A DNA stretch of 64,000 nt, taken from the NCBI GenBank assembly GCA_030603165.1, contig JAUVYH010000001.1, forward strand, positions 4,837 through 68,836. The letters are read 5' to 3'. Positions 32,270 to 61,573 of the stretch are shown one piece after another. The notes beneath the pieces were generated by a model, which had not been told where the DNA came from, did no database searches, and was given only the letters and a program-made list of their open reading frames with translations. The DNA is from Fidelibacterota bacterium (GTDB taxonomy: Bacteria > Fidelibacterota > UBA2242). Made by a program: the position numbers and the translations under genes. How positions within the stretch are numbered: position 1 is the stretch's first letter; each line of letters begins with the position of its first letter.

Positions 32270-33091
32270 TTGCTCATTATGAAAGATTTAAACTGGTATT
32301 TTCCCAAATCCATTGCCGAAGCTGTCGATTTAGTGCAGCAAGGTAAAATTCTTCCTCATGCAGGCGGAACAGGTCTGTTGCCAAGAGGTTTCACCGGAAT
32401 TGGCGGGCTCATTGATCTTTCCCGCCTGCCATTACATTATTCTAAAATTGAAAATGGTTCCGTTGAAATCGGCAGTATGAGTACTTATGCCGAAGTTGTC
32501 TCCGCATTAATGGCGATTAACCCGGAACATATTCTGGTGAAATCCTTGCGCAATTCCGCCAATACGCCCCTCAGAAACAGGATAACAATCGGCGGCAGCA
32601 TCGCCTTTTTTCCACCCTGGTCGGATCTTATGGGCGCACTGCTGGCGCTGGAAGCAAAGTTGGTGTTGGTCGGCAAGAACAGCGGTGAATTTTCAGTGAC
32701 CGATTATGTGACGAACAAAACCTTGCGGGAAAAATCGCTGATAACTGCGGTCAAATTCAACTTGTCGAATTTGCGCTCTTACCATTACCGTGACATTCGG
32801 ACTAAAAGCGACTATCCGGCTTTCAATATCACAATCCTGTTGAAACAAAGCATGAATAAAATCGAAAACAGCCGGGTTATTATTGTCGGAACTGTAAAAA
32901 AGTATAGCCGTCTCACAACTATTGAAGAATATCTGAAAAACCGGGATGTTGGAAAAATCAATATCGAAGAAATTGAAAAATTGGTTGAAGTTAAATTCGC
33001 CGGTAAAAGAATAGACGATCCGGAGTATTCAAGTTATTTAGCCGGTGTGGAGCTGGGCAGAGGAATCGAACAGCTATTGAGAGGACATTAA
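32270..33091 (+). CDS. Molybdenum hydroxylase FAD-binding subunit (CoxM/XdhB/YgfM-like)
   Basis: 'LPHAGGTGLLPRG', 'TIGGSIAFFPPWSDL'; 273 aa; stop overlaps the FeS subunit start. Confidence 0.8.
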   Translation: MLIMKDLNWYFPKSIAEAVDLVQQGKILPHAGGTGLLPRGFTGIGGLIDLSRLPLHYSKIENGSVEIGSMSTYAEVVSALMAINPEHILVKSLRNSANTPLRNRITIGGSIAFFPPWSDLMGALLALEAKLVLVGKNSGEFSVTDYVTNKTLREKSLITAVKFNLSNLRSYHYRDIRTKSDYPAFNITILLKQSMNKIENSRVIIVGTVKKYSRLTTIEEYLKNRDVGKINIEEIEKLVEVKFAGKRIDDPEYSSYLAGVELGRGIEQLLRGH

Positions 33092-33564
33092 TGGAAAGCG
33101 TATTTACTGTTAACGGGAAAAATATAAAATTTACCTTTACACCTGACGAAAGACTGCTTTTTACATTGCGAGAAAACGGATATACCGAGGTGAAAAACGG
33201 CTGCCAGGAAGGCGAATGCGGCGCCTGTTTAATTTTGCTTGATGATAAACCCGTAAATTCCTGCCAGGTGCTCACGGCATCCGCCATCGATAAAAATATC
33301 AAAACGGTGAAAGGAATTGGCGACTTGCATTCTCCGCATATCATTCAACGCGCTTTTGTTGAGACCGGAGCCGTGCAATGCGGTTTTTGCACACCGGGAA
33401 TGATTATTGCGACCTATGCTTTATTGCGGGATAATCCGAATCCTACGGAAGAAGAAATAAAAAACGCACTGGACGGCAATCTCTGCCGCTGCACCGGTTA
33501 TGTAAAGATTATCGAAGCGGTTCAGCTGGCTGCCGAACGGATGAAGAATAGAGAATTGGAGTGA
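33091..33564 (+). CDS. Molybdenum hydroxylase [2Fe-2S] small subunit
   Basis: 'GCQEGECGACLILLD..NSCQVL' and 'QCGFCTPGMI...LCRCTGY' give both 2Fe-2S cysteine clusters; 157 aa. Confidence 0.88.
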   Translation: MESVFTVNGKNIKFTFTPDERLLFTLRENGYTEVKNGCQEGECGACLILLDDKPVNSCQVLTASAIDKNIKTVKGIGDLHSPHIIQRAFVETGAVQCGFCTPGMIIATYALLRDNPNPTEEEIKNALDGNLCRCTGYVKIIEAVQLAAERMKNRELE

Positions 33565-33657
33565 TGGAGTGTTGAAACGTGGAGTATTGGAGTTTTGGAG
33601 TATTGTTTACAATAGTCTTTACATTACTCCTTTACTCCAGTACTCCACCACTCCAAA
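33556..33657. repeat. Long imperfect inverted repeat built from (GGAGT-N3) units / (ACTCC-N3) units
   Basis: Left arm 'ttggagtgatggagtgttgaaacgtggagtattggagttttggagtattg'; right arm 'cattactcctttactccagtactccaccactccaa'. The outer 16 nt pair 14/16. Overlaps the stop of the FeS gene. Confidence 0.6.
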
Positions 33658-33743
33658 CAAATTTTAAGCGGAGATAAATGTAAACCATGCCCGATTATTA
33701 TTAGTTAGATTATGATTAACTTTGCGTAAACAGGACTTGTATA

Positions 33744-35063
33744 TTGAAGAAAATGCATAAAATAATAAACGGTGACAGTCGACAGATGAATCTTGTCTCT
33801 GATAAGTCGGTACAATTGGTAGTAACATCCCCACCGTATTGGCAGCTGAAAGACTACGGAACAGAAAACCAAATAGGATATCATGAAGATTACGAAACGT
33901 ATATTAATAGCCTGAATTTGGTTTGGAAGGAATGTTACCGTGTGCTCGATAATGGTTGCCGTTTATGTATTAATATCGGAGACCAATTTGCTCGCGCTGT
34001 CTATTATGGACGTTATAAAGTTATCCCAATTCGAACTGAGATAATCAAATTTTGTGAAAGTATCGGATTTGATTATATGGGGGCTATCATTTGGCAAAAA
34101 CAGACCACCACTAACACGACAGGTGGTGCATCATTAATGGGAAGCTATCCTACGCCAAGAAACGGAATAATCTCTATTGATTATGAATTTATCTTATTGT
34201 TTAAAAAGTTAGGCTCACCACCTAAAGTAAGTAGGGAAATAAAGGAACAATCGAAACTTACAAAAGAAGAATGGAAAGAATATTTTTCAGGCCATTGGAC
34301 TTTTGGTGGAGCCAGGCAAGATGGTCATATTGCCATGTTTCCTGAAGAATTACCAAAGAGACTAATAAAAATGTTCGCTTTTAAGGGTGAGACAGTATTA
34401 GACCCTTTTATGGGGAGTGGAACAACATCTTTAGCTGCAAGAAACTTAAATAGAAATTCGATCGGCTATGAAATTAATCCCGACTTCATTGAGATAGCCA
34501 AAAAGAAACTGGGCGTTAACTATACAGATATTTCGGGAATAAAATATGAGTTCCCGAAAGATAGTTTCAATTTAGACATAGAAAGAAAACTTAATAATCT
34601 TCCTTACAGATTTGTTGATTTACAAAAGCTTGATAAAAAAATCGATCCCAAGAAAATGAGATTTGGGTCAAAAATAGATCAACATAATTTTCAAAGAGAA
34701 GAATATTACTCCGTAAAAGAAGTTCTCAGTCCTGAACTTATTAAATTAAACAATGACCTTGTGGTTCGCCTTATTGGTGTTAAACAAAAAGAATCTACAA
34801 ATGGACGAGCAATAAAGTTTATAATTGATAAAACAAAAGGGCAGAAGGTTTTTTTAAAATTTGATAATCAGAAATATGATAATGCAAACCATCTTTTATG
34901 CTATCTGTATTTAAAGAATAAAACTTTTATCAATGCTCACCTTATTAAAGAGGGCTTGGTTGAGCCGGCAACATCATTCGATTTTAAATACAAAGACAAA
35001 TTTTTTACTTTGAGCAATAATAAAGACACCATTAACCAGATGGAACAGATTATACAATGTTGA
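33744..35063 (+). CDS. Orphan beta-class DNA methyltransferase (N6A/N4C; motif IV SPPY before motif I) with C-terminal SNase/thermonuclease-like domain
   Basis: 'LVVTSPPYW' (motif IV), 'VLDPFMGSGTTSLAA' (motif I). C-terminal 'VVRLIGVKQKES...HLLCYLYLKNKTFINAHLIKEGLVE' resembles the SNase OB-fold (..RLLLVDTPE...[24 protein letters not shown]), but DTPE is replaced by KQKE. Appears AT-richer by eye. Confidence 0.75.
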   Translation: MKKMHKIINGDSRQMNLVSDKSVQLVVTSPPYWQLKDYGTENQIGYHEDYETYINSLNLVWKECYRVLDNGCRLCINIGDQFARAVYYGRYKVIPIRTEIIKFCESIGFDYMGAIIWQKQTTTNTTGGASLMGSYPTPRNGIISIDYEFILLFKKLGSPPKVSREIKEQSKLTKEEWKEYFSGHWTFGGARQDGHIAMFPEELPKRLIKMFAFKGETVLDPFMGSGTTSLAARNLNRNSIGYEINPDFIEIAKKKLGVNYTDISGIKYEFPKDSFNLDIERKLNNLPYRFVDLQKLDKKIDPKKMRFGSKIDQHNFQREEYYSVKEVLSPELIKLNNDLVVRLIGVKQKESTNGRAIKFIIDKTKGQKVFLKFDNQKYDNANHLLCYLYLKNKTFINAHLIKEGLVEPATSFDFKYKDKFFTLSNNKDTINQMEQIIQC

Positions 35064-35324
35064 TTTTTTTATTAAAATTCAGGACAAATTTATCGGTCTT
35101 CAAATTAAACCAGTAAATCAGGGGATACAACTATCTCAAATATTTAAAGAAAAAGGACTTCAAGAAAAAACACACCGAAAATTCGAAAAAGAATTTGGCG
35201 GGAAAGTCTTTTACATATTTTCATCAAAAGCAAATGGAAAAAAGGTAATTGTCAACACGGATATAATAGACGAGATCAGGAATGAGATAAAAAAACTCGA
35301 AACACTTCAAGAAGTTAAATAATT

Positions 35325-37649
35325 ATGAATAAATATATGATCATCGGTAAATCCGAAAAGAAAATTGATTCCCTGTCCCTGGCGACAGGCAGCAGCAGGT
35401 TTGTTGAGGATTTTGAAGTCAAAAACCCACTCTATCTTGCCTTTTTGTATTCGCCTTATGCACACGCTGAAATCCTGGACATCGACGATCGGAATGCTCG
35501 CAATATTACCGGTGTGGTTGATGTTTTTCATTATCAAAATGTCAAACCGGTTTTACATACAACTGCGGGGCAGGGATTTCCGGAGCCGTCACCCTATGAT
35601 ACGGTTTTGTTTGATAAAAAGGTGCGCTATGTCGGCGACAGAGTTGCCGTTGTCGCGGCTGAAAGTCTGGCAATCGCCACAGATGCCACGAAATTAATAA
35701 AAGTTGACTATAAAATTCTCGAACCCCTGTTTGACCCGGAAAAATCGATGCAGAAAGGTGCGCCGATCCTCCACGGTAAAGACCGCTATGCACCCATCCC
35801 GGTTAAATACGAGCCCGAGCATAATCTGGCGGCGGAAGTCGAAATCGGTTTTGGAAATATGAAGAACGGCGAAGTGGAAGCTGACTTTATTATTGACGAA
35901 ACATATCATGCCCATTATGGTTCTCACTGCGCTATTGAACCCCATGCAGCGCTATCGTTTTTCGATGAAATGGGACGGCTGGTAATTGTTTGTACAACGC
36001 AAGTGCCCTTTCATGTACGCCGAATCGTCTCCAGAGTTTTAGAATACCCGCTTGCGAAAATCCGGGTAATTAAGCCTCGTATCGGTGGAGGATTTGGCGG
36101 TAAACAGGAGGTTTTTCTGGAACCCGTCGTCGCTTTAGCCACTATTCGTCATAAACGACCAGCGAAAATCGTACTCTCCCGCAAAGAGGTTTTTCAATCC
36201 AGCCGCACCCGGCATCCTATCAGGATCAGGTTGCGCACTGGCGTAAAGAATGACGGTGAAATCACCTCCCTGGAAATGGACGCCCTGCTTAATTCCGGTG
36301 CCTATGGGACTCATGCACTTACAGTTCTGTCCAATAACGGCGCCAAAGTTTTACCGCTGTTTAATAAAATAAAGAATCTTCATTTTATCGGTAGGTCGGT
36401 CTATACCAATTTGCCGGTAGGCGGCGCGTATCGCGGCTATGGCGCAACTCAGGGATATTTTGCACTTAACCAGCAGCTGGATATCATCGCCCGCAAACTG
36501 GACATAGATCTTCTGGATTATATTAAGAAAAACCATATTAGAGAAGGCGAAACCTCACAGGTTTTTAAAGCTCTCGGTGAAGGCACGGAAGGCGTCACCC
36601 AGATTATCAATTCCTGTAAACTGGATGAATGTATTGACATTGGCGCTGAAGAAATCGGCTGGTATGAGAAGCGGGATAAACGCCTGAGCGACGGTGATAA
36701 GGTTCGCGGTGTCGGCGTTGCGGTTTCCATGCAGGGCTCCGGGATTCCACTGATCGACATGGGCAGCGCTTCCATGAAAATGAACGACGACGGCTCATTT
36801 AATCTGGATATAGGAGCTACTGATCTTGGAACCGGTTCCGATACTATCCTGGCTCAGATCGCGGCGGAAGTTCTGGGGATTGGTTTGGATAAAATAATTG
36901 TGCTTTCGTCCGATACGGATAGAACACCTTTTGACGTCGGCGCTTACGCTTCATCCACAACCTATATATCCGGCGCTGCCGTGAAAAAATGCGCCGAGAA
37001 AATCAAAGAACAGATTATTAGTGTAGCTGCAAAAATGCTGAACAGCGGTAAAAACGAATTGTATCTCGCAGAGGGTAAGGTCATTGATAAAAAGAAAAGT
37101 AAAGAACTTAGCCTTGCTGAAGTAGCCGCCCATTCTCTTTATACCAAAGATCAATTTCAAATCCAGGCTAATGCGTCACATGTCGCAGAACAATCACCAC
37201 CGCCTTTTATTGCTCAGTTTGCCGAAGCTGAAGTGGACAAGAAAACCGGGAAAGTTCGCATTATAAAATTTGTTTCGGCGGTTGATTGTGGGCAAGCAAT
37301 CAATCCCAAACTTGCCGAAGGGCAGATTGAAGGTGCAGCCGTCAACGGCATTTGTTACGCTCTGACCGAGCAGTACAAATTTTCCTCCAGTGGAAATTTG
37401 CTGAATAAAAGTTTCCGGGATTACAAAATCTGGACAGCGGCGGATTTGCCGGAGTTCAGGACTTTTGTTGTGGAATCCCATGAAGAGACTGGCCCCTTCG
37501 GCGCAAAATCGGTGGGTGAAATCGGTATAAACGGTCCTATGCCTGCCATTGCCAATGCAATATATGACGCAGTTGGTATCAGATTGTATAAAGCGCCATT
37601 TACCCCGGAAAAAGTCTATCGCGAAATGAAACGGACGGGAAAGATTTGA
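35325..37649 (+). CDS. Molybdenum hydroxylase large (molybdopterin-binding) subunit, xanthine-dehydrogenase family
   Basis: 774 aa; 'GGGFGGKQE' Mo-site motif, 'FGAKSVGEIGINGPMPAIANAI' C-terminal motif. Confidence 0.85.
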   Translation: MNKYMIIGKSEKKIDSLSLATGSSRFVEDFEVKNPLYLAFLYSPYAHAEILDIDDRNARNITGVVDVFHYQNVKPVLHTTAGQGFPEPSPYDTVLFDKKVRYVGDRVAVVAAESLAIATDATKLIKVDYKILEPLFDPEKSMQKGAPILHGKDRYAPIPVKYEPEHNLAAEVEIGFGNMKNGEVEADFIIDETYHAHYGSHCAIEPHAALSFFDEMGRLVIVCTTQVPFHVRRIVSRVLEYPLAKIRVIKPRIGGGFGGKQEVFLEPVVALATIRHKRPAKIVLSRKEVFQSSRTRHPIRIRLRTGVKNDGEITSLEMDALLNSGAYGTHALTVLSNNGAKVLPLFNKIKNLHFIGRSVYTNLPVGGAYRGYGATQGYFALNQQLDIIARKLDIDLLDYIKKNHIREGETSQVFKALGEGTEGVTQIINSCKLDECIDIGAEEIGWYEKRDKRLSDGDKVRGVGVAVSMQGSGIPLIDMGSASMKMNDDGSFNLDIGATDLGTGSDTILAQIAAEVLGIGLDKIIVLSSDTDRTPFDVGAYASSTTYISGAAVKKCAEKIKEQIISVAAKMLNSGKNELYLAEGKVIDKKKSKELSLAEVAAHSLYTKDQFQIQANASHVAEQSPPPFIAQFAEAEVDKKTGKVRIIKFVSAVDCGQAINPKLAEGQIEGAAVNGICYALTEQYKFSSSGNLLNKSFRDYKIWTAADLPEFRTFVVESHEETGPFGAKSVGEIGINGPMPAIANAIYDAVGIRLYKAPFTPEKVYREMKRTGKI

Positions 37650-37736: not shown

Positions 37737-39020
37737 ATGGCTGAAAAATATATTATCGGAAACGGAATCATAACCGACGGCTTTTCGTTTCTGATTGAAG
37801 ACGGCGCTATAGAAATTGAAAACGGTATAATCAAGCAAATTGGCAAAACCGATGAATTGAAAAGTAAAAACGTGGAATTCTTTAATTTGCAGGGTCGGCT
37901 GGTTCTTCCCGGTTTGCTCAATCCCCATCATCACCTCTATTCGGCTTTGGCAACTGGAATTTCTCCAATCGGTGAAACCGATAATTTTACCCAAATTCTT
38001 GAAAATCTCTGGTGGCATTTAGACAAAAGTCTTGATGAAGAATCTATCTATTATTCGGCTCTTTACGGACTTATTAAATCGGTAAAATACGGTGTGACGA
38101 CCATATTTGATCACCACGCTTCCATGAATTACATTTCCGGGAGTCTTCGGCTAATTGAAAAGGCATTCAAGGAAATTGGCGTTAAAGGATTGCTATGTTA
38201 TGAAATCTCCGATAGAATGGGCGAGAAAGCGATACCTCAGCAACTGGACGAAAATATTACTTTCCGGGAAGATCATATTGATGATAAAAACGTTCATGGT
38301 TTGCTTGGATTGCACGCCAATTTTACACTAAGTGAAGAAACGTTAGCGTTGATCAAACAACGGAAACCGGCGGACCTGCCCATTCACATTCATTGCGGCG
38401 AAGACAAGGCGGATATGCAGTATTGTGTTGATCACGGCTATGACGGACCGGTGCATCGCCTGCATGAATTTGGACTTTTATCGCCTAACTCTCTGCTTGC
38501 CCATTGCATTCATCTATCGCCCAAGGATTATGACATTATTCGTGAAATTCAGCCGATTATCATTTCCAACCCGGAATCCAACGCCAATAATAACGTTGGT
38601 GAAATGGACCTGTCTAAAATTGAAAAATACTGCCTCGGCACCGATGGCATGACGGGCAATATACTCGGCACTATGCGTTCACATTTTCTTCGGCACAATG
38701 GAAAGATTAGCCAGCCGCTGGATATTCTATTTCAATATTCCGGAAACATTGTGAAACGGTTTTTCCCTGATTCCGGTGCGCTGGAGATCGGAAAAAACGC
38801 CGACCTGGCTGTCACAGATTATATCCCCGTGACGGGGATTAATCTTGATAACCTGTTTTATCATCTTATCTTTGGGGTCGAAGGACAAAAAATGTATATG
38901 ACGATCTCCGATGGAAAAATCCTATATAAAGATGGGGAAATTCAAACTATTGGCGAAGAAGAAATTATTGCAAAAGTAAAAAAAGCGGCTCAGAAACTAC
39001 ATAAAAAATACTATGAGTGA
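37737..39020 (+). CDS. ssnA: SsnA-like amidohydrolase (chlorohydrolase/aminohydrolase superfamily)
   Basis: 'LPGLLNPHHHLYSALATG' metal-binding HxH; 427 aa; position between the xdh large subunit and the ygfK-like gene, as in E. coli ygfK-ssnA. Confidence 0.65.
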   Translation: MAEKYIIGNGIITDGFSFLIEDGAIEIENGIIKQIGKTDELKSKNVEFFNLQGRLVLPGLLNPHHHLYSALATGISPIGETDNFTQILENLWWHLDKSLDEESIYYSALYGLIKSVKYGVTTIFDHHASMNYISGSLRLIEKAFKEIGVKGLLCYEISDRMGEKAIPQQLDENITFREDHIDDKNVHGLLGLHANFTLSEETLALIKQRKPADLPIHIHCGEDKADMQYCVDHGYDGPVHRLHEFGLLSPNSLLAHCIHLSPKDYDIIREIQPIIISNPESNANNNVGEMDLSKIEKYCLGTDGMTGNILGTMRSHFLRHNGKISQPLDILFQYSGNIVKRFFPDSGALEIGKNADLAVTDYIPVTGINLDNLFYHLIFGVEGQKMYMTISDGKILYKDGEIQTIGEEEIIAKVKKAAQKLHKKYYE

Positions 39021-42000
39021 AAATTTTTCAATTATCCCGATCCGACAACTTCTTTCCCAAATATTGAAATCAGGGGCAAAAGGTTCCATTTTCGGGATTT
39101 ACCAAAGTCAATTTTTTACACCAAATAAAAAAGATGTTTATCGAACATCTATGTTTGATCAGATGCTGGAAACTCCGTTAGGCGTTGCGGCGGGTCCGCA
39201 TACCCAATTGGCGCAGAACATCATTTCCGCCTGGCTCTGCGGCGCCCGGTATATTGAATTGAAAACCGTTCAGACACTTGACGAAATAGAGGTTTCCAAA
39301 CCGTGTATTGATATTCAGGACGAGGGCTACAATTGCGAATGGTCGCAGGAACTCAAAATCGAAGAATCCTTCGATGAATATCTGAAAGCCTGGATCATCA
39401 TCCATCTTTTGCGGCACAAGTTCGGCTGGATCGGCGACATCGGTACGATTTTCAACATGAGCGTCGGCTATGATATGACGGGAATTCTGAAAGACAATGT
39501 GCAGTGGTTTTTGGCTAAAATGACGAATTGCCGCGAAGAAAAGGATGCTTTTATAGATGAAATAAAAGAACTATATCCTGCCGTAAATGACATTGAAATT
39601 ACCGACTGTATTTCAAATAACGTTACTCTCTCAACGATGCACGGCTGCCCTTCCGAGGAGATTGAAAAAATCGGGCAATATCTTATCGAAGAAAAGAAAC
39701 TGCATACATTTATCAAATTAAATCCGACGCTTCTGGGAAAAGAGAAAATTCACAAAATACTGACGGAAAAATTGGGCTACGAAACTATCGTACCGGATAT
39801 TGCTTTCGAACATGACATAAGCTACCCCGCTGCCGTAAAGGTGATTCAATCATTGCAACAATCCGCTCAAAAACAGGGCGTTTTCTTCGGTGTGAAACTG
39901 ACTAATACACTGGAAGCAATCAACCATAAAAACATTTTCAGTGACGAATCCATGTATATGAGCGGCAAAGCGCTGCATCCGATCAGCATCAACGTTGCGC
40001 GAAAATTAAAGAATACTAATAAAATCAAAGATTTGCACATATCCTTTTGCGGAGGTGTGAATGCCTTCAATGTGGCTGATGTCCTGACTTGCGGTTTATA
40101 TCCGGTGACGGTTTGCTCGGATTTATTGAAGCCCGGTGGATATGCCCGGCTGCCGCAATACCTGGAGGAAATCGAAAAAACCTTTATCAGCTATCAAGCA
40201 ACCGATTTACAGGATCTTATTGTCAAGAAAAGTAAGCAAACGGACCTTACCGCCGGAGTGCTGGCGAACTTAAATGAATACGCCGACAACGTCGTCAACG
40301 AACCGGTCTATAAATCAGTCTTTACCGATATTAAAACTCAGCGAGAATTAACCGAATTTGACTGTATTGTTGCTCCCTGTGTGAATACCTGTCCGTCGAA
40401 TCAAAATATTCCCGAATACATGTACCGGACGGCTAAAGGTGAATTTTCCAATGCCTTTGATACAATTATGCTCACTAATCCATTTCCGTCGGTTACGGGA
40501 ATGGTATGCGATCACCCCTGTCAAAGCAAATGTACCCGGATTAATTATGACAATTCGCTGCTGATTCGCGAGATTAAGCGCTTTATCACCGAGAATGCAG
40601 TAAAAATGGACAGCATTGTTCCTAAACAAAAGATTAGTAAAAAAGTCGCTATTATTGGCGCGGGACCATCCGGATTATCTTGCGCCTGGTTCCTTGCTTT
40701 AGCTGGTTTTGATGTAGAGATATTTGAGACGAAAGAATTTCCCGGAGGGATGCTGGCGGACGCTATACCCTTATTCCGGTTGTCGGAAAAAGCTCTGAGC
40801 GATGACATAAACCGTATCCGGCGTCTCGGCGTTAATATCCATACGTCAACGCGAATCGATGTATCGGCATTTAATAAAATTAAAGACAAATCCGACTTTA
40901 TATATATTGCGGTCGGCGCTCAACAGTCGATGAAAGTTTCCATCGAAGGAGACGATGTCGAACGGGGCTTGCTGGACCCCTTAAAATTTTTATCGGCAGT
41001 GCGAAGATGCGAATCCATTGAATTGGGAAAAAAGGTCATCGTTCTCGGCGGAGGAAATACCGCCATTGACGCCGCCAGAACCGCTAAGCGATTTGTTGGA
41101 AAAAACGGTTCCGTAACCATTGCTTACCGCCGAACACGCAGAGAAATGCCCGCCGATCAGGATGAAATCCGGGCGGCGCTGGATGAAGGCATCGAACTCA
41201 TCGAACTGGCTGCTCCCGCTAAAATCAATTCAGTAAACGGTAGCGTCAGGTCACTGGCTTGTTACCGGATGAAATTAGGCGGCGTCGATGAATCTGGTCG
41301 TCCCCGACCGGTGAAAATCGATGGCAGTGAGTTTGAAATCGCGACTGATACGATCATACCGGCATTCGGGCAAACTGCGGATATTGATTTTATTGATCAG
41401 GAGCTACTGGAAGTCACTGATCTGGAAACCAGGGAAATCAAACCCCAAAATATATTTATCGGCGGCGATGCTTTCCGGGGCGCTTCAACGGTAATTAAAG
41501 CCATTGCCGATGGACGTAAAACCGCCGGGACGATTATCCAAAAAGCGGGAATTGATCTTGATGGAACGGTTCTGAGATCAACCAATAAAGAGCTAACCCG
41601 GGAACAGCATCACGAAAAAAGAGCGCAAATCGTACATGGAATCAAATCGGAAGAAACACCGCTGGCGGAGCGGGATTACTTTAGCTTGGTCGATCTGACG
41701 CTGACTGAAGAAGAAGCGCAGCGGGAAGCGTCGCGTTGTCTTTTCTGTGATGAAGTCTGCGATATTTGCGTGACCGTCTGCCCCAACCGGGCAAATTATG
41801 GTTACACCGTCGAGCCCTTTGAAGTCAAGCTGCAAAAGGCTGTCAATGATAACGGCAAAATCAAAATAGTGGATGATGGAATATTTAAGATCGAGCAGCC
41901 ATACCAGGTGTTAAATATCGACGAATTTTGCAACGAGTGCGGCAATTGTGCGACCTTTTGCCCGACCAGCGGCGCGCCTTACAAAGACAAACCCAGGGTG

Positions 42001-42267: not shown

Positions 42268-42315
42268 TTTTAACCTGATTAATTTACAAACCGCAGAGAA
42301 CGCAAAAAACATAGA

Positions 42316-44712: not shown

Positions 44713-44828
44713 AATTTTTGTGTGAAAAGAAAGAAGAAATATGAATAAAAAATTATACGAAGAAAAAAAAGAAAAAGTAAAAGCTGGCTTGGAAGAATAT
44801 TTCTCTAATGGTGTAAGAAAGGAAAAAA

Positions 44829-45149: not shown

Positions 45150-45225
45150 AAATAAATCAAAATAATAATCTGTGCGTATCTGTGAAAATCCGTGGAGAAA
45201 AAAAAAGAAAAGGAGATATATAAAG

Positions 45226-50397: not shown

Positions 50398-50408
50398 TTT
50401 TTAGTCAA

Positions 50409-54721: not shown

Positions 54722-55557
54722 AGGGATTCAGACCAGCAGATCTTCAAGAGGCGCTGGAATTCATGGCAAAACATCCATCTATTCCCATAGCCGGCGGAAC
54801 GGACCTGATGATCCAAAAAGCCCGGGGGTTCGGACTGAAACCGGATTTTAATAAACCGCTGCTGTTCATCGGTCATTTGCGGGAACTCCGGCAGATTTCT
54901 GTCAGGAATGGAAACATCCACATCGGCGCCAGCGTGCTTTTAAATGAATTAATCAAAAATGATAAAATTCCCGAAGCTTTAAAAATGGCGGTTCGCCAAA
55001 TGGCTTCCCCGCCCTCCAGAAATCTGGCAACTATTGGCGGCAATATTTGCAATGCTTCGCCCGCCGGTGATACGCTGCCTTATTTATATGCGGCGGATGC
55101 GTTTTTGGTCCTGAAAAGTAGCCAAGCCGAACGAAAAATTCCAGTGGGGAAATTTATCACCGGTCCGGGAAAAACAACTTTGAAATCGGACGAACTGTTG
55201 ACCGAGATTATCATCCCCGACAAAGTGTTCAGTGCTAATTATTATAAAAAAGTGGGCACGCGCAAAGGCATGAGCCTTTCCAAAGCTTCGTTCACCGGAT
55301 TGGCTGATATTGAAAGTGAAAAAATTACCGACATCAGAATTGCATTTGGATCGGTAGCGCCGACGATTGTCCGGTCGCGGGAAATCGAAGCGAGTATCAT
55401 CGGAAAACCGGTTTCGGAGATCAAAAATGCTGTTCCGGAAATAGTGAAAAAGTTTGCGCCGCTGATCCGACCGATTGACGATGCGCGATCTTCGGCAGAG
55501 TATCGCAAGCAGGTCAGTTTGCGGCTGTTGGAGAATTTTCTAATGAAATTGACTTAG
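54715..55557 (+). CDS. ygfM: Molybdenum hydroxylase FAD-binding subunit, second paralog (YgfM-like)
   Basis: ATG 54715 overlaps the FeS stop (ATGGTAG). 'IPIAGGTDLMI', 'TIGGNICNASPAGD'; 280 aa from this start. The ORF track's upstream extension (54646) lacks homology. Confidence 0.8.
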   Translation: MVEGFRPADLQEALEFMAKHPSIPIAGGTDLMIQKARGFGLKPDFNKPLLFIGHLRELRQISVRNGNIHIGASVLLNELIKNDKIPEALKMAVRQMASPPSRNLATIGGNICNASPAGDTLPYLYAADAFLVLKSSQAERKIPVGKFITGPGKTTLKSDELLTEIIIPDKVFSANYYKKVGTRKGMSLSKASFTGLADIESEKITDIRIAFGSVAPTIVRSREIEASIIGKPVSEIKNAVPEIVKKFAPLIRPIDDARSSAEYRKQVSLRLLENFLMKLT

Positions 55558-55585
55558 AAATAGAGAATAACTAAGGAGAAATAAA

Positions 55586-56212: not shown

Positions 56213-56245
56213 CCTAAATTACTCATCGCCACTAAGATACTACAA

Positions 56246-56503: not shown

Positions 56504-56767
56504 ATGAAAACAATCTCAACAACTAAAATGTCATCTAAAGGACAGGTCGTTATTCCAGAGAAAATCCGCAAACAATTGGGGTTGAAGTCCGGGGTGCAAT
56601 TTGTCGTGTTAGGTAAAGACGATGTAGTTATTTTAAAAGCCATCGAATCGCCGTCCATTAGCGAATTTGATAAATTAATTCTTCGGGCAAGAGAACAAGC
56701 TGTGCAATATGGCTTAAAACAGACAGATATTGAGGAAGCAATTTCGGAAGTCAGGAACGCTCATTGA
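56504..56767 (+). CDS. AbrB/MazE/SpoVT-type antitoxin
   Basis: 'MSSKGQVVIPEKIRKQLGLKSGVQFVV' swapped-hairpin AbrB-type motif; 87 aa; TTGA overlap with the downstream toxin. Confidence 0.75.
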   Translation: MKTISTTKMSSKGQVVIPEKIRKQLGLKSGVQFVVLGKDDVVILKAIESPSISEFDKLILRAREQAVQYGLKQTDIEEAISEVRNAH

Positions 56768-57177
56768 AAATTGTTCTTGATACCAATGTGTTGATGTCCG
56801 GTATGTTTTTTAGCGGTCCGCCACATGAAATTTTAAAACTGTGGAGGGATGGACAAATTGAACTTTTAATATCAGATGCAATTTTCGAAGAATATCAGCG
56901 TGTTGGTTTGGTATTGGCAAAAAAATACCCTGGAATTGATATCAGTAGTTTTCTTAATTTGATCCAACGGAGAGCAATTTTGATCGATACACTGGTTGAA
57001 ATCTGTAATATTTGCGCCGATTCCGATGATGATAAATTCCTCGAATGCGCTGTTAATGCAAAGTGTAACATGATTGTCAGTGGCGATAAGCATTTGCTGG
57101 CAGTTTCCGGATTTCAGAGTATTCAGGTACTTAGTCCAAGAGAATTTACCACCCTTTTCCGGGAGGATTATCGATGA
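56764..57177 (+). CDS. PIN-domain toxin (VapC-like, PIN_3 type)
   Basis: 'IVLDTNVLMSGMFF' N-terminal acidic motif, 'ISDAIFEEYQRV', 'VSGDKHLL'; 137 aa; TTG start. Confidence 0.7.
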   Translation: MKIVLDTNVLMSGMFFSGPPHEILKLWRDGQIELLISDAIFEEYQRVGLVLAKKYPGIDISSFLNLIQRRAILIDTLVEICNICADSDDDKFLECAVNAKCNMIVSGDKHLLAVSGFQSIQVLSPREFTTLFREDYR

Positions 57178-57977
57178 AGAATATTTATAACGAAATTTTA
57201 GAACTCAGTCACGGAAAAGGCGCCGGCGTTCTGGTTACGGTCGTGCAAAAAACCGGTTCGGGACCGGCGGATTCCGGCGCCAGAATGCTGGTCTATCCCG
57301 ACGGATCGATTTTGGGAACAGTCGGCGGCGGCACGATTGAGAAACTGGCGATTGAAAAAGCGACGGCGATGTTTAAGACCCATGAAAACTGTCTCGAAGA
57401 GTTCACCATGAACGAATCCGCAAGCGATGGCACTCCGACAGGGATGCTTTGTGGTGGAACAGCAACGCTTTTTTTTGAATATTTCGCTCCGAAGAACCAC
57501 ATCTACATTTTTGGCGCCGGGCACGTGGGTAAGGCGCTGGTGTACCACTTGAGAAATCTGGATTATTTCGTGACGGTAGTTGACGACCGCAAGGAAGTTC
57601 TTGATAAAATATCCGGCGCCGACGAAAAAATATCAGGCAGTTTTGAAACAGCACTGGAGAATCATGATGTCGCTGTAAACGCCTACTTTGTTATCGCAAC
57701 GTATCAACATAAATACGATGGTTTGGTACTGAACCGCATTTACAAATCCGGCTGGAGTCCGAAATATGTCGGGATGGTTTCGTCACGGAGTAAGCAGAAA
57801 ATCCTGTTGGATAAACTCAAGGCTGAAGTTCCGGATGCGAACCTTGAAAATTGTTTTATTCCGGTCGGGCTGGATATCGGCGGCGGTTCACCGGATGAAA
57901 TCGCGCTGTCTGTCATCGCTGAAATCCAGGCGGTCAGGTATGGCAAAAGCGGCGGGTATTTGCGAGATAAAAATTAG
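57174..57977 (+). CDS. xdhC: XdhC/CoxI-family molybdenum hydroxylase maturation protein (YqeB-like)
   Basis: 'VLVTVVQKTGSGPADSGARMLVYPDGSILGTVGGGTIE' XdhC_CoxI N-domain; 'IYIFGAGHVGKAL' Rossmann domain; 267 aa. Confidence 0.8.
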   Translation: MKNIYNEILELSHGKGAGVLVTVVQKTGSGPADSGARMLVYPDGSILGTVGGGTIEKLAIEKATAMFKTHENCLEEFTMNESASDGTPTGMLCGGTATLFFEYFAPKNHIYIFGAGHVGKALVYHLRNLDYFVTVVDDRKEVLDKISGADEKISGSFETALENHDVAVNAYFVIATYQHKYDGLVLNRIYKSGWSPKYVGMVSSRSKQKILLDKLKAEVPDANLENCFIPVGLDIGGGSPDEIALSVIAEIQAVRYGKSGGYLRDKN

Positions 57978-57986
57978 AGCAGAATT

Positions 57987-58544
57987 TTGGTAAATATAAT
58001 TACGGGAAATGTCAACCAGGGTAAAACCCGCTATATGCGTTCGCTGTATGAAAAAATAGGCGGCGACGGATTTATCTGCGTTAAAGTTTTTGATAAGAAT
58101 AATTTTCAGGGGTATGATCTCGTCCGGTTAACAACTGGTGAAAGTACGCCTTTCGCGCGGAAGAACGATGCAATACCTGGTAATTGGGATGAAATGTATC
58201 GGGTTGGGATATTTTCTTTTTCCGGTCATGCTTTCACTATCGCCGATATAATCATTGCAGAAATTATTAAAGGTGGAACAGTACCGATATTTATTGACGA
58301 AATTGGCCCATTAGAAATAGTTAAACAAAAGGGGTTTTACGAACTACTTAAACGGGTTTTGAAATTAAAACAAGAAGTGTATATTTCGATCCGGAATGAA
58401 TTAGTCAACGAATTGATAAAAGATTTTAAGATAAATGAACCACGAATTATCCGTCAGCTGTCCGTCAGTAGCCGGATTCTCAAACCGGATGTCTTTGACA
58501 CACCAATTACACGAAGTAAAATTAAAAATGAAAATAAATTATAA
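57987..58544 (+). CDS. P-loop NTPase (THEP1/NTPase_1-like; possible YqeC-type accessory protein)
   Basis: N-terminal Walker A 'IITGNVNQGKT', 'FIDEIGPLEI' Walker B-like; 185 aa; TTG start directly after xdhC. Confidence 0.45.
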   Translation: MVNIITGNVNQGKTRYMRSLYEKIGGDGFICVKVFDKNNFQGYDLVRLTTGESTPFARKNDAIPGNWDEMYRVGIFSFSGHAFTIADIIIAEIIKGGTVPIFIDEIGPLEIVKQKGFYELLKRVLKLKQEVYISIRNELVNELIKDFKINEPRIIRQLSVSSRILKPDVFDTPITRSKIKNENKL

Positions 58545-58678: not shown

Positions 58679-60139
58679 ATGATCGACTTAACAGTAAATG
58701 AGAAGCAACTGGCAAACACAGTAAAACGGTGTAAAGAACGGAATATTATCATTCCCACCTTTGAACAGATGAAAACCCCCGGGTTAATTCCCGATTCAAT
58801 AATAGAAGAATTAAAAGATATCGGGCTTTGGGACGTGCATTCCCGGAATCTGTTCCGGGTGAGCTGGAAGAATGAACCGGTCGCCACAGGCGGAGGATTT
58901 GGTGGTCTTAATTATATGATTCTTCCGCCGGAATTAACGGACGTTAAAGCAAAAATAATCGCTTTGGTTGGAAAATGGTTTCCGACCGGATCACATAAAG
59001 TCGGCGCTACTTTTGGTTGCCTCGTTCCCCGGTTAGTTACAGGGCAATTTGATCCGGTTGTTCAGAAAGCGGTCTGGCCATCGACGGGAAATTATTGTCG
59101 GGGGGGCGCTTATAATTCTGCTTTACTGGCTTGTGAATCCATCGCGATTCTGCCGGAAGAGATGTCAAAGGAACGCTTCGAATGGCTGTCAAATGTTGCC
59201 GGCGAAGTCATTCCCACGCCCGGTTGCGAGAGCAATGTGAAAGAGATTTTTGACAAGTGCTGGGAATTGAAGGAAACACGGGATGATATTGTAATTTTCA
59301 ACCAGTTCGATGAATTCGGAAATCATCTCTGGCATTATGAAGTTACGGGAAATGCGATGGCGGAAGTATTGAAAGAGGTCATGGGAGATAATGACCGCTA
59401 TTCCGGCGTGGTGCTGACTTCCGGTTCGGCGGGAACCCTGGGAAGCGGTGATTTTCTTAAGGAGCTGTTCCCCACTTCAAAAATCGCCGTTGCCGAGGCG
59501 CTGCAATGTCCGACATTACTTTTGAATGGTTTTGGCGGTCACCGGATCGAAGGCATCGGAGACAAACATGTACCCTGGATTCATAATGTCAGGAACACCG
59601 ACATGGTAGTCGCCGTGGATGATGAGCATACCATTCGCCTGATGCGCCTGTTCAACGAACCGATTGGACGAGAATATCTCGAACAGCATGGCGTTGATCA
59701 GAATATCGCCGAGAATCTTGATCTGCTCGGTATTTCGTCCATCGGAAACATGGTGGCGGCGATCAAATATGCCAAATATTATGAACTGACCGAACAGGAT
59801 ATTGTCCTGACGGTGTTCACCGATTCCATGGAACTTTACGGCTCCCGCATTCGCGAACTTAATGAAGAAAAAGGGAGTTATACCCACGATGATGCTGTCC
59901 GGGATTATGAACTTCTCAATAATATCAATGTCGAATATGCTCTGGAACTGGATTTCTACGAGAAAAAACGCATCCACAACCTGAAATACTACACCTGGAT
60001 CGAGCAGCAGGCAAAAGAATTAGATGAGTTGAATGCCCAATGGTACGATCACCGTGAATATTGGGGATCGATTCACAGCATGATGCCTAAGATCGATGCG
60101 TTGATTGAAGAGTTTAATGAAAGAGTATTGCAAAAATAA
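58679..60139 (+). CDS. Fold-type II PLP-dependent enzyme (TrpB-like) with ~100-aa N-terminal extension
   Basis: 'FPTGSHKVGATFG' (compare TrpB 'HTGAHKINNALG') and 'PSTGNYCRGGAYNS'; 486 aa. Confidence 0.5.
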   Translation: MIDLTVNEKQLANTVKRCKERNIIIPTFEQMKTPGLIPDSIIEELKDIGLWDVHSRNLFRVSWKNEPVATGGGFGGLNYMILPPELTDVKAKIIALVGKWFPTGSHKVGATFGCLVPRLVTGQFDPVVQKAVWPSTGNYCRGGAYNSALLACESIAILPEEMSKERFEWLSNVAGEVIPTPGCESNVKEIFDKCWELKETRDDIVIFNQFDEFGNHLWHYEVTGNAMAEVLKEVMGDNDRYSGVVLTSGSAGTLGSGDFLKELFPTSKIAVAEALQCPTLLLNGFGGHRIEGIGDKHVPWIHNVRNTDMVVAVDDEHTIRLMRLFNEPIGREYLEQHGVDQNIAENLDLLGISSIGNMVAAIKYAKYYELTEQDIVLTVFTDSMELYGSRIRELNEEKGSYTHDDAVRDYELLNNINVEYALELDFYEKKRIHNLKYYTWIEQQAKELDELNAQWYDHREYWGSIHSMMPKIDALIEEFNERVLQK

Positions 60140-60145
60140 AATCCT

Positions 60146-61573
60146 TTGAGAAAAATAATGGACAGATCTATCCTCATAAAAAACCCCCTCCTTTGCTGCC
60201 GAATGGATATCGATGTTCATTCCAATGATGTGTTGAACACTTTTTCCGGCGGACATATCTATATTGAAGATAATAAGATCATTTCTGCCGGACCGGAGGA
60301 ATTTTCCGGCGCTGCCGACCGGATCATTGACGCCAGCCGGATGGTGGCGCTGCCGGGCTTCGTGAACACACATCATCACTTTTACCAGACTCTGACCCGC
60401 AATATTTTCGCGACGCAAAAGTCAGAACTGTTTGACTGGCTAATCACCAACTATGAAATCTGGCGCGGAATCAGCGGCGAAGCAATTTACATTAGCGCCA
60501 AACTGGCAATAGCCGAACTCTTGAAATCAGGTTGCACGACTACTTCCGATCATCTGTATCTTTTTCCGAATAAAGCCGAACCGACGCTGATCGACCGGGA
60601 GATCAAAGCCGCCCGGGAATTGGGAATTCGCTTTCAGCCGACCCGCGGTTCCATGTCCAGGGGTAAATCCGACGGCGGACTGCCCCCGGACGATGTCATC
60701 CAGACCGAAGCGCAGATCGTTGAAGATACATACCGGTTGATCAATGAATATCACGATGATTCCTTCGGAGCAATGACCCGCATTTCACTGGCGCCCTGTT
60801 CGCCCTTTTCGGTGACACCGGAGTTAATGAAAGAAACCGCCCGAATTGCCCGTGAGAATAAGTTGCAGATCCACACCCATCTCGCTGAAACAGCCGATGA
60901 AGTAAATTTCTGCCTGGAAAAATTTAAGATGCGTCCGTTTGAATTCATGAGGTCGCTTGATTGGATCGGTTCCAATGCCTGGTTTGCCCATTCCATCTAT
61001 CTCAATGACGATGAAATCCGGCAGGGCGGTGACGCCGGGATTGGTGTGGCTCACTGTCCGTCGTCGAATATGCGGCTCGGTTCTGGAATCGCCCGGATCA
61101 GGGAAATGCTCGATGCAGGTATAAAGGTTGGGATCGGCGTCGATGGTTCGGCGTCCAACGATTCATCCAATATGTTGATGGAGATGAGAAATGCGTTGCT
61201 GCTATCCAGGTTAAGAGGACCGGAATACTGGCTCGGTACTGAAGAAGTCCTCTGGATGGCGACGGTGGGTGGTGCAAAAGCGTTGGGACGGGATGATATC
61301 GGGCAAATCGCTCCGGGAAAATGCGCCGACCTGACTCTGATTTCAATGGACAGGCTGGAATATTCCGGCGCTCAACACGATCCGGCGGCGGCAATCCTGT
61401 TTTGTGTTGCCATGAGTCCGGTGGATTGGGTGATTGTGAATGGGAAGATTATTGTGGAAGATGGCAGGATTAAAGATTTGGATGAGCCTGCATTGATTAG
61501 GAAACAGCAACAAATATCCGACGAATTAGTTGCCCGGGCGGAAACTGAAACCGGGGAAAAATTGAGACGCTAA
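60146..61573 (+). CDS. Amidohydrolase of the TRZ/ATZ/guanine-deaminase group (8-oxoguanine/cytosine-deaminase-like)
   Basis: 'LPGFVNTHHHFYQTLTRN' metal-binding HxH, 'HTHLAET', 'VGIGVDGSASND'; 475 aa. Confidence 0.7.
   Translation: MRKIMDRSILIKNPLLCCRMDIDVHSNDVLNTFSGGHIYIEDNKIISAGPEEFSGAADRIIDASRMVALPGFVNTHHHFYQTLTRNIFATQKSELFDWLITNYEIWRGISGEAIYISAKLAIAELLKSGCTTTSDHLYLFPNKAEPTLIDREIKAARELGIRFQPTRGSMSRGKSDGGLPPDDVIQTEAQIVEDTYRLINEYHDDSFGAMTRISLAPCSPFSVTPELMKETARIARENKLQIHTHLAETADEVNFCLEKFKMRPFEFMRSLDWIGSNAWFAHSIYLNDDEIRQGGDAGIGVAHCPSSNMRLGSGIARIREMLDAGIKVGIGVDGSASNDSSNMLMEMRNALLLSRLRGPEYWLGTEEVLWMATVGGAKALGRDDIGQIAPGKCADLTLISMDRLEYSGAQHDPAAAILFCVAMSPVDWVIVNGKIIVEDGRIKDLDEPALIRKQQQISDELVARAETETGEKLRR

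Follow-up and report, generated by a model that had tools for sequence, protein, structure and literature searches.

Introduction

The reductive urate pathway was solved in 2025 (Li et al., bioRxiv 10.1101/2025.05.19.654654; Liu et al., bioRxiv 10.1101/2025.04.24.650524; plus a commentary). Here we compare the gene cluster that encodes it in E. coli to a purine gene cluster from a Fidelibacterota bacterium (assembly GCA_030603165.1, contig JAUVYH010000001.1), which lies at positions 32270-61573 of the window, i.e. the whole 64-kb stretch of DNA that was analysed. In the published pathway, a separate xanthine dehydrogenase supplies urate, which XdhD-YgfM (DOPDH, for 2,8-dioxopurine dehydrogenase) reduces to 2,8-dioxopurine. 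YgfK reduces 2,8-dioxopurine, SsnA opens the ring to give ureidomethylhydantoin, and HyuA turns this into 2,3-diureidopropionate. YgeW then phosphorolyses one ureido group, with YqeA converting the carbamoyl phosphate to ATP, and YgeY hydrolyses the other ureido group. Lastly, YgeX converts 2,3-diaminopropionate to pyruvate and ammonia (bioRxiv 10.1101/2025.05.19.654654; 10.1101/2025.04.24.650524). A variant is found in C. difficile, where UacX stands in for YgfK and the D-aminoacylase UacY for YgeW and YqeA (bioRxiv 10.1101/2025.05.19.654654). The survey of genes near ssnA in the same study assigned any PF00185 protein to 'YgeW' and any PF00291 protein to 'YgeX'.

We find that the Fidelibacterota region is probably a functional, operon-like cluster for anaerobic reductive purine degradation via urate and 2,8-dioxopurine, whose lower half is made up of non-orthologous enzymes. 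Its genes can be identified, they are linked in a conserved manner, and they are under purifying selection. A previous reading of the DNA without database searches (the sequence-only reading) had proposed an anaerobic purine or urate catabolic neighbourhood of the ygfK/ssnA/xdhD type, which is borne out by family assignments with hidden Markov models. All genes named in that reading were recovered at the coordinates it had given, on the + strand, by open reading frame (ORF), NCBIfam and Pfam calls. It had further suggested a variant pathway with a non-canonical lower half. Comparative genomics strongly supports this suggestion: two carbamoyltransferases and a carbamate kinase (CT2-CT1-CK) recur together with the genes of two pyridoxal phosphate (PLP) enzymes, a ThrC-like protein and a protein that we call PALP486, and, in about 165 related loci, never with ygeX. 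We found no paper on this CT1-CK-CT2/ThrC-like/PALP486 variant; it is a real, conserved and apparently undescribed variant of the known pathway.

Methods

ORFs were called and the proteins and DNA of the window were scanned with NCBIfam, Pfam, PADLOC, Rfam and tRNA models and compared to PDB sequences; the Rfam and tRNA scans of the window found nothing. The proteins of the E. coli cluster were used as tblastn queries against the whole 64 kb. Related loci (numbered L001 and so on) were anchored on CT2 or on PALP486. There are 81 CT2-anchored genome loci, with 36 of them counted as well-flanked (at least 5 kb on either side), and 54 well-flanked metagenome loci anchored on PALP486; all related loci together number about 165. 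Ratios of nonsynonymous to synonymous substitution rates (dN/dS) were computed for 16 cluster genes against the nearest metagenome-assembled genomes (MAGs). Structures were modelled with AlphaFold2 for CT2 (mean predicted local distance difference test score, pLDDT, 89) and PALP486 (pLDDT 79.5).

Results

The cluster is intact and conserved

All substantial ORFs of the region lie on the + strand, and many starts and stops abut or overlap (33091; 39013/39020; 50394/50397; 51584/51587; 52162/52165; 54251/54261; 57174/57177), which suggests co-translation. Purifying selection was observed for 16 of the 16 tested genes (dN/dS 0.05-0.27). We thus conclude that the layout is maintained and not decaying. 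The closest relatives are MAGs of Candidatus Neomarinimicrobiota (Marinimicrobia), whose genes are 96-97% identical to CT2; on this basis we assign the window to an uncultured marine member of this group. One of these MAGs, a bin from the Black Sea at 750 m (JADHWC010000026, L006), aligns collinearly to the window with a nucleotide identity of 82-93%.

When the E. coli proteins are compared to their counterparts in the window, identities are 38% for XdhD, 35% for YgfK, 33% for SsnA, 36% for YqeA, 34% for YgeW, 31% for MocA and, in the N-terminal half, 29% for YqeB. Four proteins (SsnA, carbamate kinase, MocA and XdhC) score slightly under the curated cut-offs of their families, with E-values of 1e-40 to 1e-125.

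The proposed upper pathway resembles that of E. coli

The region contains two molybdenum (Mo) enzymes, each with an FAD, a 2Fe-2S and a Mo-binding subunit. The Mo-binding subunit of enzyme 1 (Mo1) is more similar to E. coli XdhD (38%, 524 bits) than to XdhA (33%, 420 bits). Equivalents of Arg880 and Glu1261 are present, and a Gln occupies the position of Glu802, as in the E. coli enzymes. Furthermore, Mo1 has the loop with Glu606 ('ALGEGTEG') that is otherwise specific to XdhD and that is found neither in Mo2 nor in XdhA or other Mo2-type proteins; this loop was singled out by Li et al. (bioRxiv 10.1101/2025.05.19.654654). The Mo1 gene adjoins ssnA and ygfK, with a gap of 88 bp between Mo1 and ssnA. 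The FAD subunit of the same enzyme is divergent, its identity (E 6e-9) with YgfM of E. coli being 26%; this 271-aa gene keeps its position in the sister clusters described below. From sequence and adjacency, Mo1 is a candidate for the reductase that converts urate to 2,8-dioxopurine (DOPDH).

Mo2, the Mo-binding subunit of enzyme 2, reaches 365 bits with the best xanthine dehydrogenase model (cut-off 850). It contains the motifs 'GGAFGGKEE', 'AYRGFG' and 'GAKCAGE', which we take to be the equivalents of Glu802, Arg880 and Glu1261 of the bovine enzyme. On the same kind of evidence, Mo2 is a candidate for xanthine oxidation. The FAD subunit of this enzyme probably starts near 54715, as relatives call a 280-aa product.

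Both large subunits score far higher with xanthine dehydrogenase models than with CO dehydrogenase models (Mo1, 668 vs 349 bits; Mo2, 365 vs 236 bits), and the PaoC models are also far lower. This agrees with their earlier classification as xanthine-dehydrogenase-type proteins rather than CO dehydrogenases or aldehyde oxidoreductases. The sequence-only reading had, however, described the two Mo enzymes as duplicated core sets. In relatives, the two Mo subunits are only about 25% identical, so that they are different enzymes and not a duplication; in addition, the parent pathway needs two Mo enzymes (a xanthine dehydrogenase and a 2,8-dioxopurine dehydrogenase), and two sets are thus expected.

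The SsnA-type protein also falls under the cut-off of a second model (382 bits, cut-off 455.5), and its close homologues carry the name SsnA at JGI. Its gene (dN/dS 0.13) overlaps the start of ygfK by eight nucleotides. The similarity of YgfK to the E. coli protein extends over the full length. The Pfam domains of the window protein are Fer4_20, Pyr_redox_2 and a C-terminal Fer4 domain.

The last gene of the region encodes an amidohydrolase that had been described as guanine-deaminase-like. It reaches only 158 bits with the guanine deaminase model (cut-off 351) and instead passes that of 8-oxoguanine deaminase (599 bits, cut-off 532). The gene is found directly 3' of PALP486 in eight other loci, and loci with this gene do not overlap with loci that have a strong HyuA. 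We considered it as a substitute for HyuA and rejected this: since it passes its own equivalog cut-off and coexists with a dihydroorotase (DHOase)-like gene in L097, we keep it as a deaminase.

Two carbamoyltransferase families flank a carbamate kinase

CT1 and CT2 had been described as two YgeW-like transferases. Their scores with the YgeW models TIGR03316 and NF005538 (cut-offs 500 and 453) are 116 and 125 bits for CT1 and 166 and 182 bits for CT2, while the N-acetylornithine carbamoyltransferase (AOTCase) model gives 259 and 268 bits, respectively (cut-off 288). As they stay far under the YgeW cut-offs and score higher as AOTCases, neither is a YgeW orthologue; their identity to YgeW is 31-34%. 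By sequence, CT1 and CT2 are two distinct, highly conserved families that are nearest to AOTCase.

The best PDB match of CT1 is an AOTCase (199 bits), and CT2 has a match of the 3kzk type (about 195 bits). The AlphaFold2 model of CT2 superimposes on AOTCase 3kzk with TM-scores of 0.86/0.92 and a root-mean-square deviation of 1.9 Å over about 353 columns. Both proteins have the long 240s-loop insertion of knotted AOTCases. CT1 (dN/dS 0.14) carries 'HPMP' in place of 'HCLP', and its family (n=53) keeps SxRTR and HPxQ. CT2 (dN/dS 0.05) is 62-97% identical across phyla (n=73) and has a unique invariant loop, 'PGKTYTPARKG..PYKTER'. Among the 81 CT2-anchored loci, CT-type proteins fall into four groups: CT2 (73), CT1 (53), short YgeW-like proteins (CT327/CT338) and true ornithine carbamoyltransferases. 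The carbamoyl-phosphate motifs are kept by all four.

CK is 36% identical to E. coli YqeA and adjoins the CT pair in 27 of the 36 well-flanked CT2-anchored loci. Of these 27 loci with CT1 and CK, 17 contain ssnA, ygfK or xdh genes and 21 contain one of the two PLP genes. A role of CT2 as a housekeeping enzyme of the arginine pathway was considered and rejected as the main reading, since neither argB, argC and argH nor arginine deiminase genes were found near any of 83 loci. Loci in which CT2 stands alone (L002, L021, L030, L031, L033, L036-L038 and L053) come from Myxococcota-, Aminicenantes- and Aerophobetes-like MAGs. Their CT2 proteins are 70-79% identical to that of the window, and no kinase, CT1, purine or arginine genes lie within 10 kb.

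Two PLP enzymes as proposed replacements of YgeX

The ThrC-like protein carries an N-terminal zinc ribbon; 67 of 68 relatives share its four ligands. Compared to four solved threonine synthases (T. thermophilus numbering), it retains K61, S84, T85, G86 and N87. In contrast, five residues that do not vary among the four solved enzymes have been replaced in 67 of the 68 cluster-linked relatives, including the window protein: T88 by A, N154 by T, S155 by A or G, R160 by T, M or L and N188 by D. We take these five to be the residues that bind the substrate phosphate in the T. thermophilus enzyme. The changes from Arg to Thr and from Asn to Asp would fit a substrate with an amino or ureido group and not a phosphate. 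We regard the ThrC-like protein as a candidate for a lyase that acts on 2,3-diaminopropionate or on one of its mono-ureido derivatives.

Although the protein scores just over the cut-off of the thrC model TIGR00260 (174.7 vs 167.1 bits), neither hom nor thrB was found by NCBIfam near the gene or among the other ORFs of the window. In dozens of loci the gene is accompanied by purine genes, and it is present in 34 of the 54 PALP486-anchored loci. Judged by the replaced residues and this linkage, the gene is not a housekeeping thrC.

PALP486, earlier described as TrpB-like, resembles CysK and CBS both by sequence and by predicted fold. Its model aligns to CBS/CysK structures with TM-scores of 0.72-0.77 at about 23% identity and has helical extensions at the N-terminus (about 80 aa) and the C-terminus (about 90 aa). 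The family is large, with at least 71% identity within the top 120 matches. Uricolytic-type genes occur in 44 of the 54 PALP486-anchored loci, and the most common immediate neighbour is the ThrC-like gene (10 loci). We propose PALP486 as a candidate for a beta-eliminating lyase in the lower pathway. It has no match in the E. coli cluster, and the ThrC-like protein is only weakly similar to YgeX (22% over 180 residues by blastp, no tblastn match). A ygeX orthologue was found in none of the about 165 related loci. The absence of ygeX from these loci and of PALP486 and ThrC-like orthologues from the E. coli cluster amounts to complementary distributions.

Related loci and sister clusters

CT2-CT1-CK, the ThrC-like gene and PALP486 occur together with ssnA, ygfK or xdh genes in Marinimicrobia, Cloacimonadota, Elusimicrobiota and other phyla. 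Cloacimonadota loci, for instance L066 and L080, are organised overall like the window. In L105, YgfK (54%), SsnA (61%), XdhD (55%) and YgfM (within 54-61%) of the E. coli type occur together with the ThrC-like protein, PALP486, CT2, CT1 and CK. A YgeY is present in 17 CT2-anchored loci.

A set of sister clusters of the Marinimicrobia/Bacteroidales type (L171 and L089 on one contig, L172, L173 and L174) shows other genes at the place of the CT1-CK-CT2 cassette. Their order is FAD-FeS-Mo1-[DHOase-like]-SsnA-YgfK-YgeY-CT338-ThrC-like, followed by MocA-Mo2-FeS-FAD-u208-DUF364/XdhC-NTPase-PALP486. The DHOase-like gene between Mo1 and ssnA encodes a protein that is 30% identical to HyuA. Compared to these sisters, the lineage of the window lacks the DHOase-like gene and has u106-CT1-CK-CT2 in place of YgeY-CT338. 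The DHOase-like protein has a match in none of the 81 CT2-anchored loci and in 19 PALP486-anchored loci. The hydantoinase-less layout is kept in L006, L008, L009 and L016 and, as a module, in other phyla. In L174 (JAXHMX010000003.1, a 504-kb contig), the hydantoinase-like gene, ygfK, ygeY, mocA and Mo2 are each split into two called genes and no gene was called at the expected Mo1 position; the splits look like assembly frameshift errors or real decay of that cluster.

Genes that are absent

With the E. coli proteins as tblastn queries, no match was obtained in the 64 kb for hyuA, ygeX, ygeY or yqeC, in line with the earlier observation that hyuA, ygeY and ygeX are not seen in this neighbourhood. 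NCBIfam scans found no selD, thrB or hom among the other ORFs of the window. YqeC had no match in any related locus either. The label 'selenium-dependent' that the sequence-only reading had attached to the cluster is not supported, as the window has no full-length yqeB, yqeC or selD.

Two further candidates for missing enzymes were set aside. The unannotated conserved ORFs of Elusimicrobiota loci, considered as an alternative reductase or hydantoinase, are HEAT-repeat proteins, lipoproteins and a deacetylase-like protein. An Amidohydro_3 protein (557 aa), weighed as the missing hydrolase, is encoded in the near-identical relative L087 just past the position where the window ends; it carries a Tat/lipoprotein-type signal and lies outside the window. 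There, at 13955-17015 and after a ResB-like gene, a membrane-anchored Fe-S protein (458 aa) is followed by this signal-peptide-bearing Amidohydro_3 protein, homologues of which (37-38% identity) are encoded directly 3' of PALP486 in L158, L163 and L167.

Accessory and inserted genes

All features of the region are listed in Table 1. Some of the genes that accompany the pathway genes are conserved as well. The membrane protein u208 (dN/dS 0.10) directly follows Mo2-FeS-FAD in several lineages (34-91% identity) and might belong to a transporter or act as a membrane-bound partner of Mo enzyme 2. XdhC is the protein that is 29% identical to the N-terminal half of E. coli YqeB. The NTPase_1 gene lies between xdhC and PALP486, and the same order is found in L087 and L089-L095. 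The submodule (DUF4213/DUF364)-XdhC-NTPase_1 recurs just 5' of PALP486 (window 57174-58544; L089-L095) and might be an alternative maturation set for the Mo cofactor (sulfur or selenium) that replaces YqeB/YqeC.

Other genes interrupt the cluster. The methyltransferase gene at 33744-35063 is an insertion and not a pathway gene: in sister clusters, FeS is directly followed by Mo1 with no methyltransferase between them. The G+C content at 34-36 kb is 0.365, lower than in the flanks, and no restriction partner of the methyltransferase is evident nearby. In the nearest MAG (L006), no more than 56 bp stand in the place of window stretch 42243-45203, which includes the Schlafen-like genes; the HATPase_c_4/HTH piece is a fragment of a second copy of the Schlafen/AlbA_2 protein. 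The AAA_14/DUF4143 ATPase is found at the same place in close relatives (57% identity in some, 99% in another) and is probably not a pathway gene. At the site of the PIN toxin, the nearest MAGs encode a Fic protein.

Outside the region, a gene similar to REP-associated tyrosine transposases lies at 62697-63281, after a ResB-like gene; L087 has no such gene at the equivalent site. Window positions 1-30000 contain an arabinan/arabinose utilisation locus. It encodes a TonB-dependent receptor, a PorV-family protein, two ArfA-like arabinofuranosidases, an endo-arabinanase and an aceric-acid-hydrolase-like protein, as well as a mutarotase, araA, araD, a ribulokinase and a sodium:solute symporter. 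IS4-family transposase genes, or fragments of them, flank this locus at 242-1555 and 30389-31701.

Table 1. Features of the purine gene cluster, with positions in the window
Feature	Position	Strand	Evidence
FAD subunit, Mo enzyme 1, YgfM-like	32270-33091	+	divergent; only FAD_binding_5 domain (Pfam, 82 bits)
2Fe-2S subunit, Mo enzyme 1	33091-33564	+	NCBIfam XdhC_XDHase 161 bits and related FeS-subunit models
Type II N6/N4 DNA methyltransferase with SNase-like C-terminus	33744-35063	+	Pfam N6_N4_Mtase 154 bits, SNase 23 bits; PADLOC MTase_II 564 bits
Mo-binding subunit 1 (Mo1), XdhD-like	35325-37649	+	38% identity to E. coli XdhD
SsnA-type amidohydrolase	37737-39020	+	NF005540 417 bits, cut-off 444
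YgfK-type Fe-S flavoenzyme	39013-42267	+	TIGR03315 905 bits, above cut-off 835
HATPase_c_4/HTH fragment and AlbA_2(Schlafen)-HATPase_c_4-HTH protein	42359-44712	+	Pfam; insertion, not pathway genes
u106, 106-aa protein directly 5' of CT1	44829-45149	+	no family match; 94% identical copy at same position in L008
Carbamoyltransferase CT1	45192-46247	+	AOTCase model NF003384 259 bits, cut-off 288
Carbamate kinase (CK), long form, 360 aa	46277-47359	+	TIGR00746 289 bits, cut-off 358
Carbamoyltransferase CT2, paralogue nearer YgeW	47480-48556	+	AOTCase model 268 bits, cut-off 288
AAA_14/DUF4143 ATPase	49033-50397	+	Pfam; PADLOC candidate defence PDC-S01 564 bits
ThrC-family PLP enzyme with N-terminal Zn ribbon	50394-51587	+	best PDB match threonine synthase 2zsj, 179 bits
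MocA-type molybdenum cofactor cytidylyltransferase	51584-52165	+	TIGR03310 156 bits, cut-off 186; 31% identity to E. coli MocA
Mo-binding subunit 2 (Mo2), candidate xanthine/hypoxanthine dehydrogenase	52162-54261	+	xanthine dehydrogenase models 350-365 bits
2Fe-2S subunit, Mo enzyme 2	54251-54721	+	XdhC_XDHase model 175 bits
FAD subunit, Mo enzyme 2	54646-55557	+	XdhB model 183 bits; Pfam FAD_binding_5 and CO_deh_flav_C
u208, 208-aa membrane protein, about six transmembrane helices	55586-56212	+	no Pfam, NCBIfam or PDB match
PIN toxin	56764-57177	+	selfish/defence-type insertion
XdhC-family Mo-cofactor insertion chaperone	57174-57977	+	Pfam XdhC_CoxI and XdhC_C; NF045664 195 bits
NTPase_1 (THEP1-like) P-loop protein	57987-58544	+	Pfam NTPase_1 48 bits
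PALP486, 486-aa CysK/CBS-fold PLP enzyme	58679-60139	+	PDB sequence matches CBS and CysK, E 1e-15
8-oxoguanine-deaminase-type amidohydrolase	60146-61573	+	NF006055 599 bits, above cut-off 532

Discussion

The proposed pathway

The reactions of the XdhD-, YgfK-, SsnA-, YgeW- and YqeA-type steps are carried over from the published homologues. We infer the step at which each Mo enzyme acts, the compounds on which CT1, CT2 and both PLP enzymes act, and an opening of the hydantoin by something other than a HyuA-type enzyme. In the resulting scheme, hypoxanthine and xanthine would be oxidised to urate by Mo enzyme 2 (52162-55557), with MocA and XdhC for its maturation, and the 8-oxoguanine-type deaminase would feed in oxidised guanine. 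The XdhD-like Mo enzyme 1 (32270-37649) would then reduce urate to 2,8-dioxopurine, whose ring YgfK would reduce and SsnA would open, as shown for the E. coli enzymes. CT2 and CT1 may strip the ureido groups by phosphorolysis, such that carbamate kinase would convert the carbamoyl phosphate to ATP. Finally, the ThrC-derived enzyme and PALP486 would replace YgeX in converting a diaminopropionate-type compound to pyruvate and ammonia.

For the lower half we tentatively put forward a possible exchange in which the CT1-CK-CT2 cassette took the place of YgeY, the YgeW-like transferase and the hydantoinase. Both ureido groups might then leave as carbamoyl phosphate, which would yield two ATP per urate and not one, and YgeX might have been replaced by two new PLP families, one derived from threonine synthase, with a pocket lined by Asp, and one CysK-like.

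Alternative explanations

Some observations weigh against a cluster for reductive purine degradation with such a lower half. SsnA, CK, both Mo subunits and both transferases score under the curated equivalog cut-offs. A HyuA-type hydantoinase is absent from the window and from all 81 CT2-anchored loci, and one canonical step is thus without a candidate. CT2 and CT1 are accompanied by YgeY, and in some cases by a third transferase that is YgeW-like, in Cloacimonadota and Elusimicrobiota; as the ureido-cleaving enzymes in these phyla exceed the two ureido groups, the notion of one transferase per ureido group may be wrong. PALP486 adjoins xdhC and the NTPase gene in Marinimicrobia-type loci, which would also fit a role in maturation. 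Lastly, CT2 occurs alone, with no purine genes nearby, in nine of the 36 well-flanked loci. The lone CT2 genes also favour the view that CT1-CK-CT2 and the two PLP genes are a module of their own, which lies beside the purine genes and serves the fermentation or biosynthesis of another carbamoylated compound (citrulline-like or N-acyl-ornithine-like). Consistent with such a module, both transferases score highest with the AOTCase model and structure, L001 contains the module without xdh, ssnA or ygfK within 10 kb, and a true ornithine carbamoyltransferase (408 bits, cut-off 306) adjoins it in some Elusimicrobiota loci. However, both transferases remain under the AOTCase cut-off and the genes argB, argC, argH and arginine deiminase are missing around every locus. 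Furthermore, purine genes lie within 10 kb in 17 of the 27 loci with CT1 and CK, a true YgeY orthologue (541 bits, cut-off 321) is encoded directly 5' of CT2 in 17 loci, and the cassette fills the YgeY-CT338 slot of the sister clusters. We therefore consider a separate module unlikely.

The order u208-(DUF364)-XdhC-NTPase_1-PALP486, which recurs in Marinimicrobia-type loci, raises the question of whether PALP486 is catabolic at all. Together with XdhC, NTPase and DUF364 it could supply the molybdenum cofactor with sulfur or selenium and thereby be a functional counterpart of YqeB/YqeC: the NTPase or XdhC is directly 5' in 12 loci, CysK-type enzymes handle sulfide chemistry, and the XdhC of the window resembles the N-terminal half of YqeB. 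Yet the sulfuration of cofactors is known from cysteine desulfurases of fold-type I, and in other phyla PALP486 abuts CK (Cloacimonadota), SsnA and YgeY (L049), a divergent CT2 (L020, L024, L026) or HyuA (five loci), with the ThrC-like gene as its most common neighbour. A maturation role is thus rather improbable. A decaying remnant, which has lost the hydantoinase-like gene and ygeY, has been invaded by mobile genes and encodes an incomplete pathway, might be suspected from the comparison to the sister clusters, which contain both genes, and from the four insertions (methyltransferase, Schlafen-like, PDC-S01-like and PIN) that break up the cluster. We regard decay as very unlikely, since all pathway ORFs are intact, purifying selection acts on all 16 tested genes, and the layout without hydantoinase is kept in related MAGs and, as a module, in other phyla. 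Hardly credible is, lastly, the combination of a ThrC-like protein that is the threonine synthase of the organism and Mo enzymes that are CO dehydrogenases or aldehyde oxidoreductases. Here, the score just over TIGR00260 and the failure of both Mo subunits to reach any curated xanthine dehydrogenase cut-off are outweighed by the five replaced residues, the missing hom and thrB, the purine linkage in dozens of loci, the far lower scores of the CO dehydrogenase and PaoC models, and the active-site motifs of the xanthine type.

Implications

If the proposed roles are true, four uncharacterised and very widespread enzyme families would gain a function, and purine fermentation would be predicted to provide energy to the Marinimicrobia, Cloacimonadota and Elusimicrobiota of anoxic waters and sediments. 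A pathway that was worked out in gut bacteria in 2025 would thereby be extended to major uncultured lineages that live in sulfidic oceans and sediments. The window and the about 165 related loci suggest that a large share of the natural diversity of this pathway uses other enzymes in its lower half. Assigning these families would correct mis-annotations as 'threonine synthase' and 'ornithine carbamoyltransferase' and, for PALP486, as 'cysteine synthase' or 'PLP-dependent enzyme'. By their Pfam domains, the genes of this variant would have entered the survey of Li et al. as 'YgeW' and 'YgeX'. It also bears on the question of which ureido group is removed first and could reveal a version of the pathway with a higher yield.

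Comparison to described systems

The window shares with the E. coli and C. sporogenes clusters an XdhD-like protein with the Glu606 loop, YgfK, an overlapping SsnA-type protein, a YqeA-related kinase next to a carbamoyltransferase, MocA, a candidate second enzyme of the xanthine dehydrogenase type and a purine deaminase. The logic would also be the same, i.e. to reduce the purine, open the ring, strip the ureido groups with a gain of ATP and release a C3 unit. Unlike the E. coli cluster (xdhD-ygfM, ygfK, ssnA, hyuA, ygeW, yqeA, ygeY, ygeX), the window contains no HyuA, YgeY or YgeX. Two AOTCase-like paralogues flank the kinase instead of YgeW, and a ThrC-derived and a CysK-like PLP enzyme are found where YgeX would be. 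In addition, the FeS and Mo parts of XdhD are encoded by two different genes, and yqeB, yqeC and selD are missing from the window. The host is a marine bacterium of the FCB group and not a gut organism. C. difficile provides a precedent for swaps of non-orthologous enzymes and for energy conservation at the ureido step being optional; whereas phosphorolysis was given up for hydrolysis there, the putative phosphorolytic enzymes are doubled in the window and a hydrolase is missing.

Similar comparisons can be made for the individual families. CT1 and CT2 share SxRTR, HPxQ and the 240s-loop insertion with AOTCase (X. campestris ArgF', PDB 3kzk) and YgeW (PDB 3q98), but fall under the cut-offs of both families and lack a context of arginine biosynthesis. 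The ThrC-like protein has the fold, PLP lysine and S-T-G-N loop of short-class threonine synthases (PDB 2zsj, 1uim) and a zinc ribbon as in PRK08197-type models; it differs from them in T88A, N154T, S155A/G, R160T/M/L and N188D and in its context, which is purine catabolism and not hom/thrB. PALP486 has the core fold and PLP motifs of the CysK/CBS family, which includes the O-ureido-L-serine synthase DcsD (PDB 3x44), and differs from it by its low identity (about 23%), extra terminal helices and extreme conservation within the family. DcsD shows that the CysK/CBS fold can handle beta-substituents that bear a ureido group.

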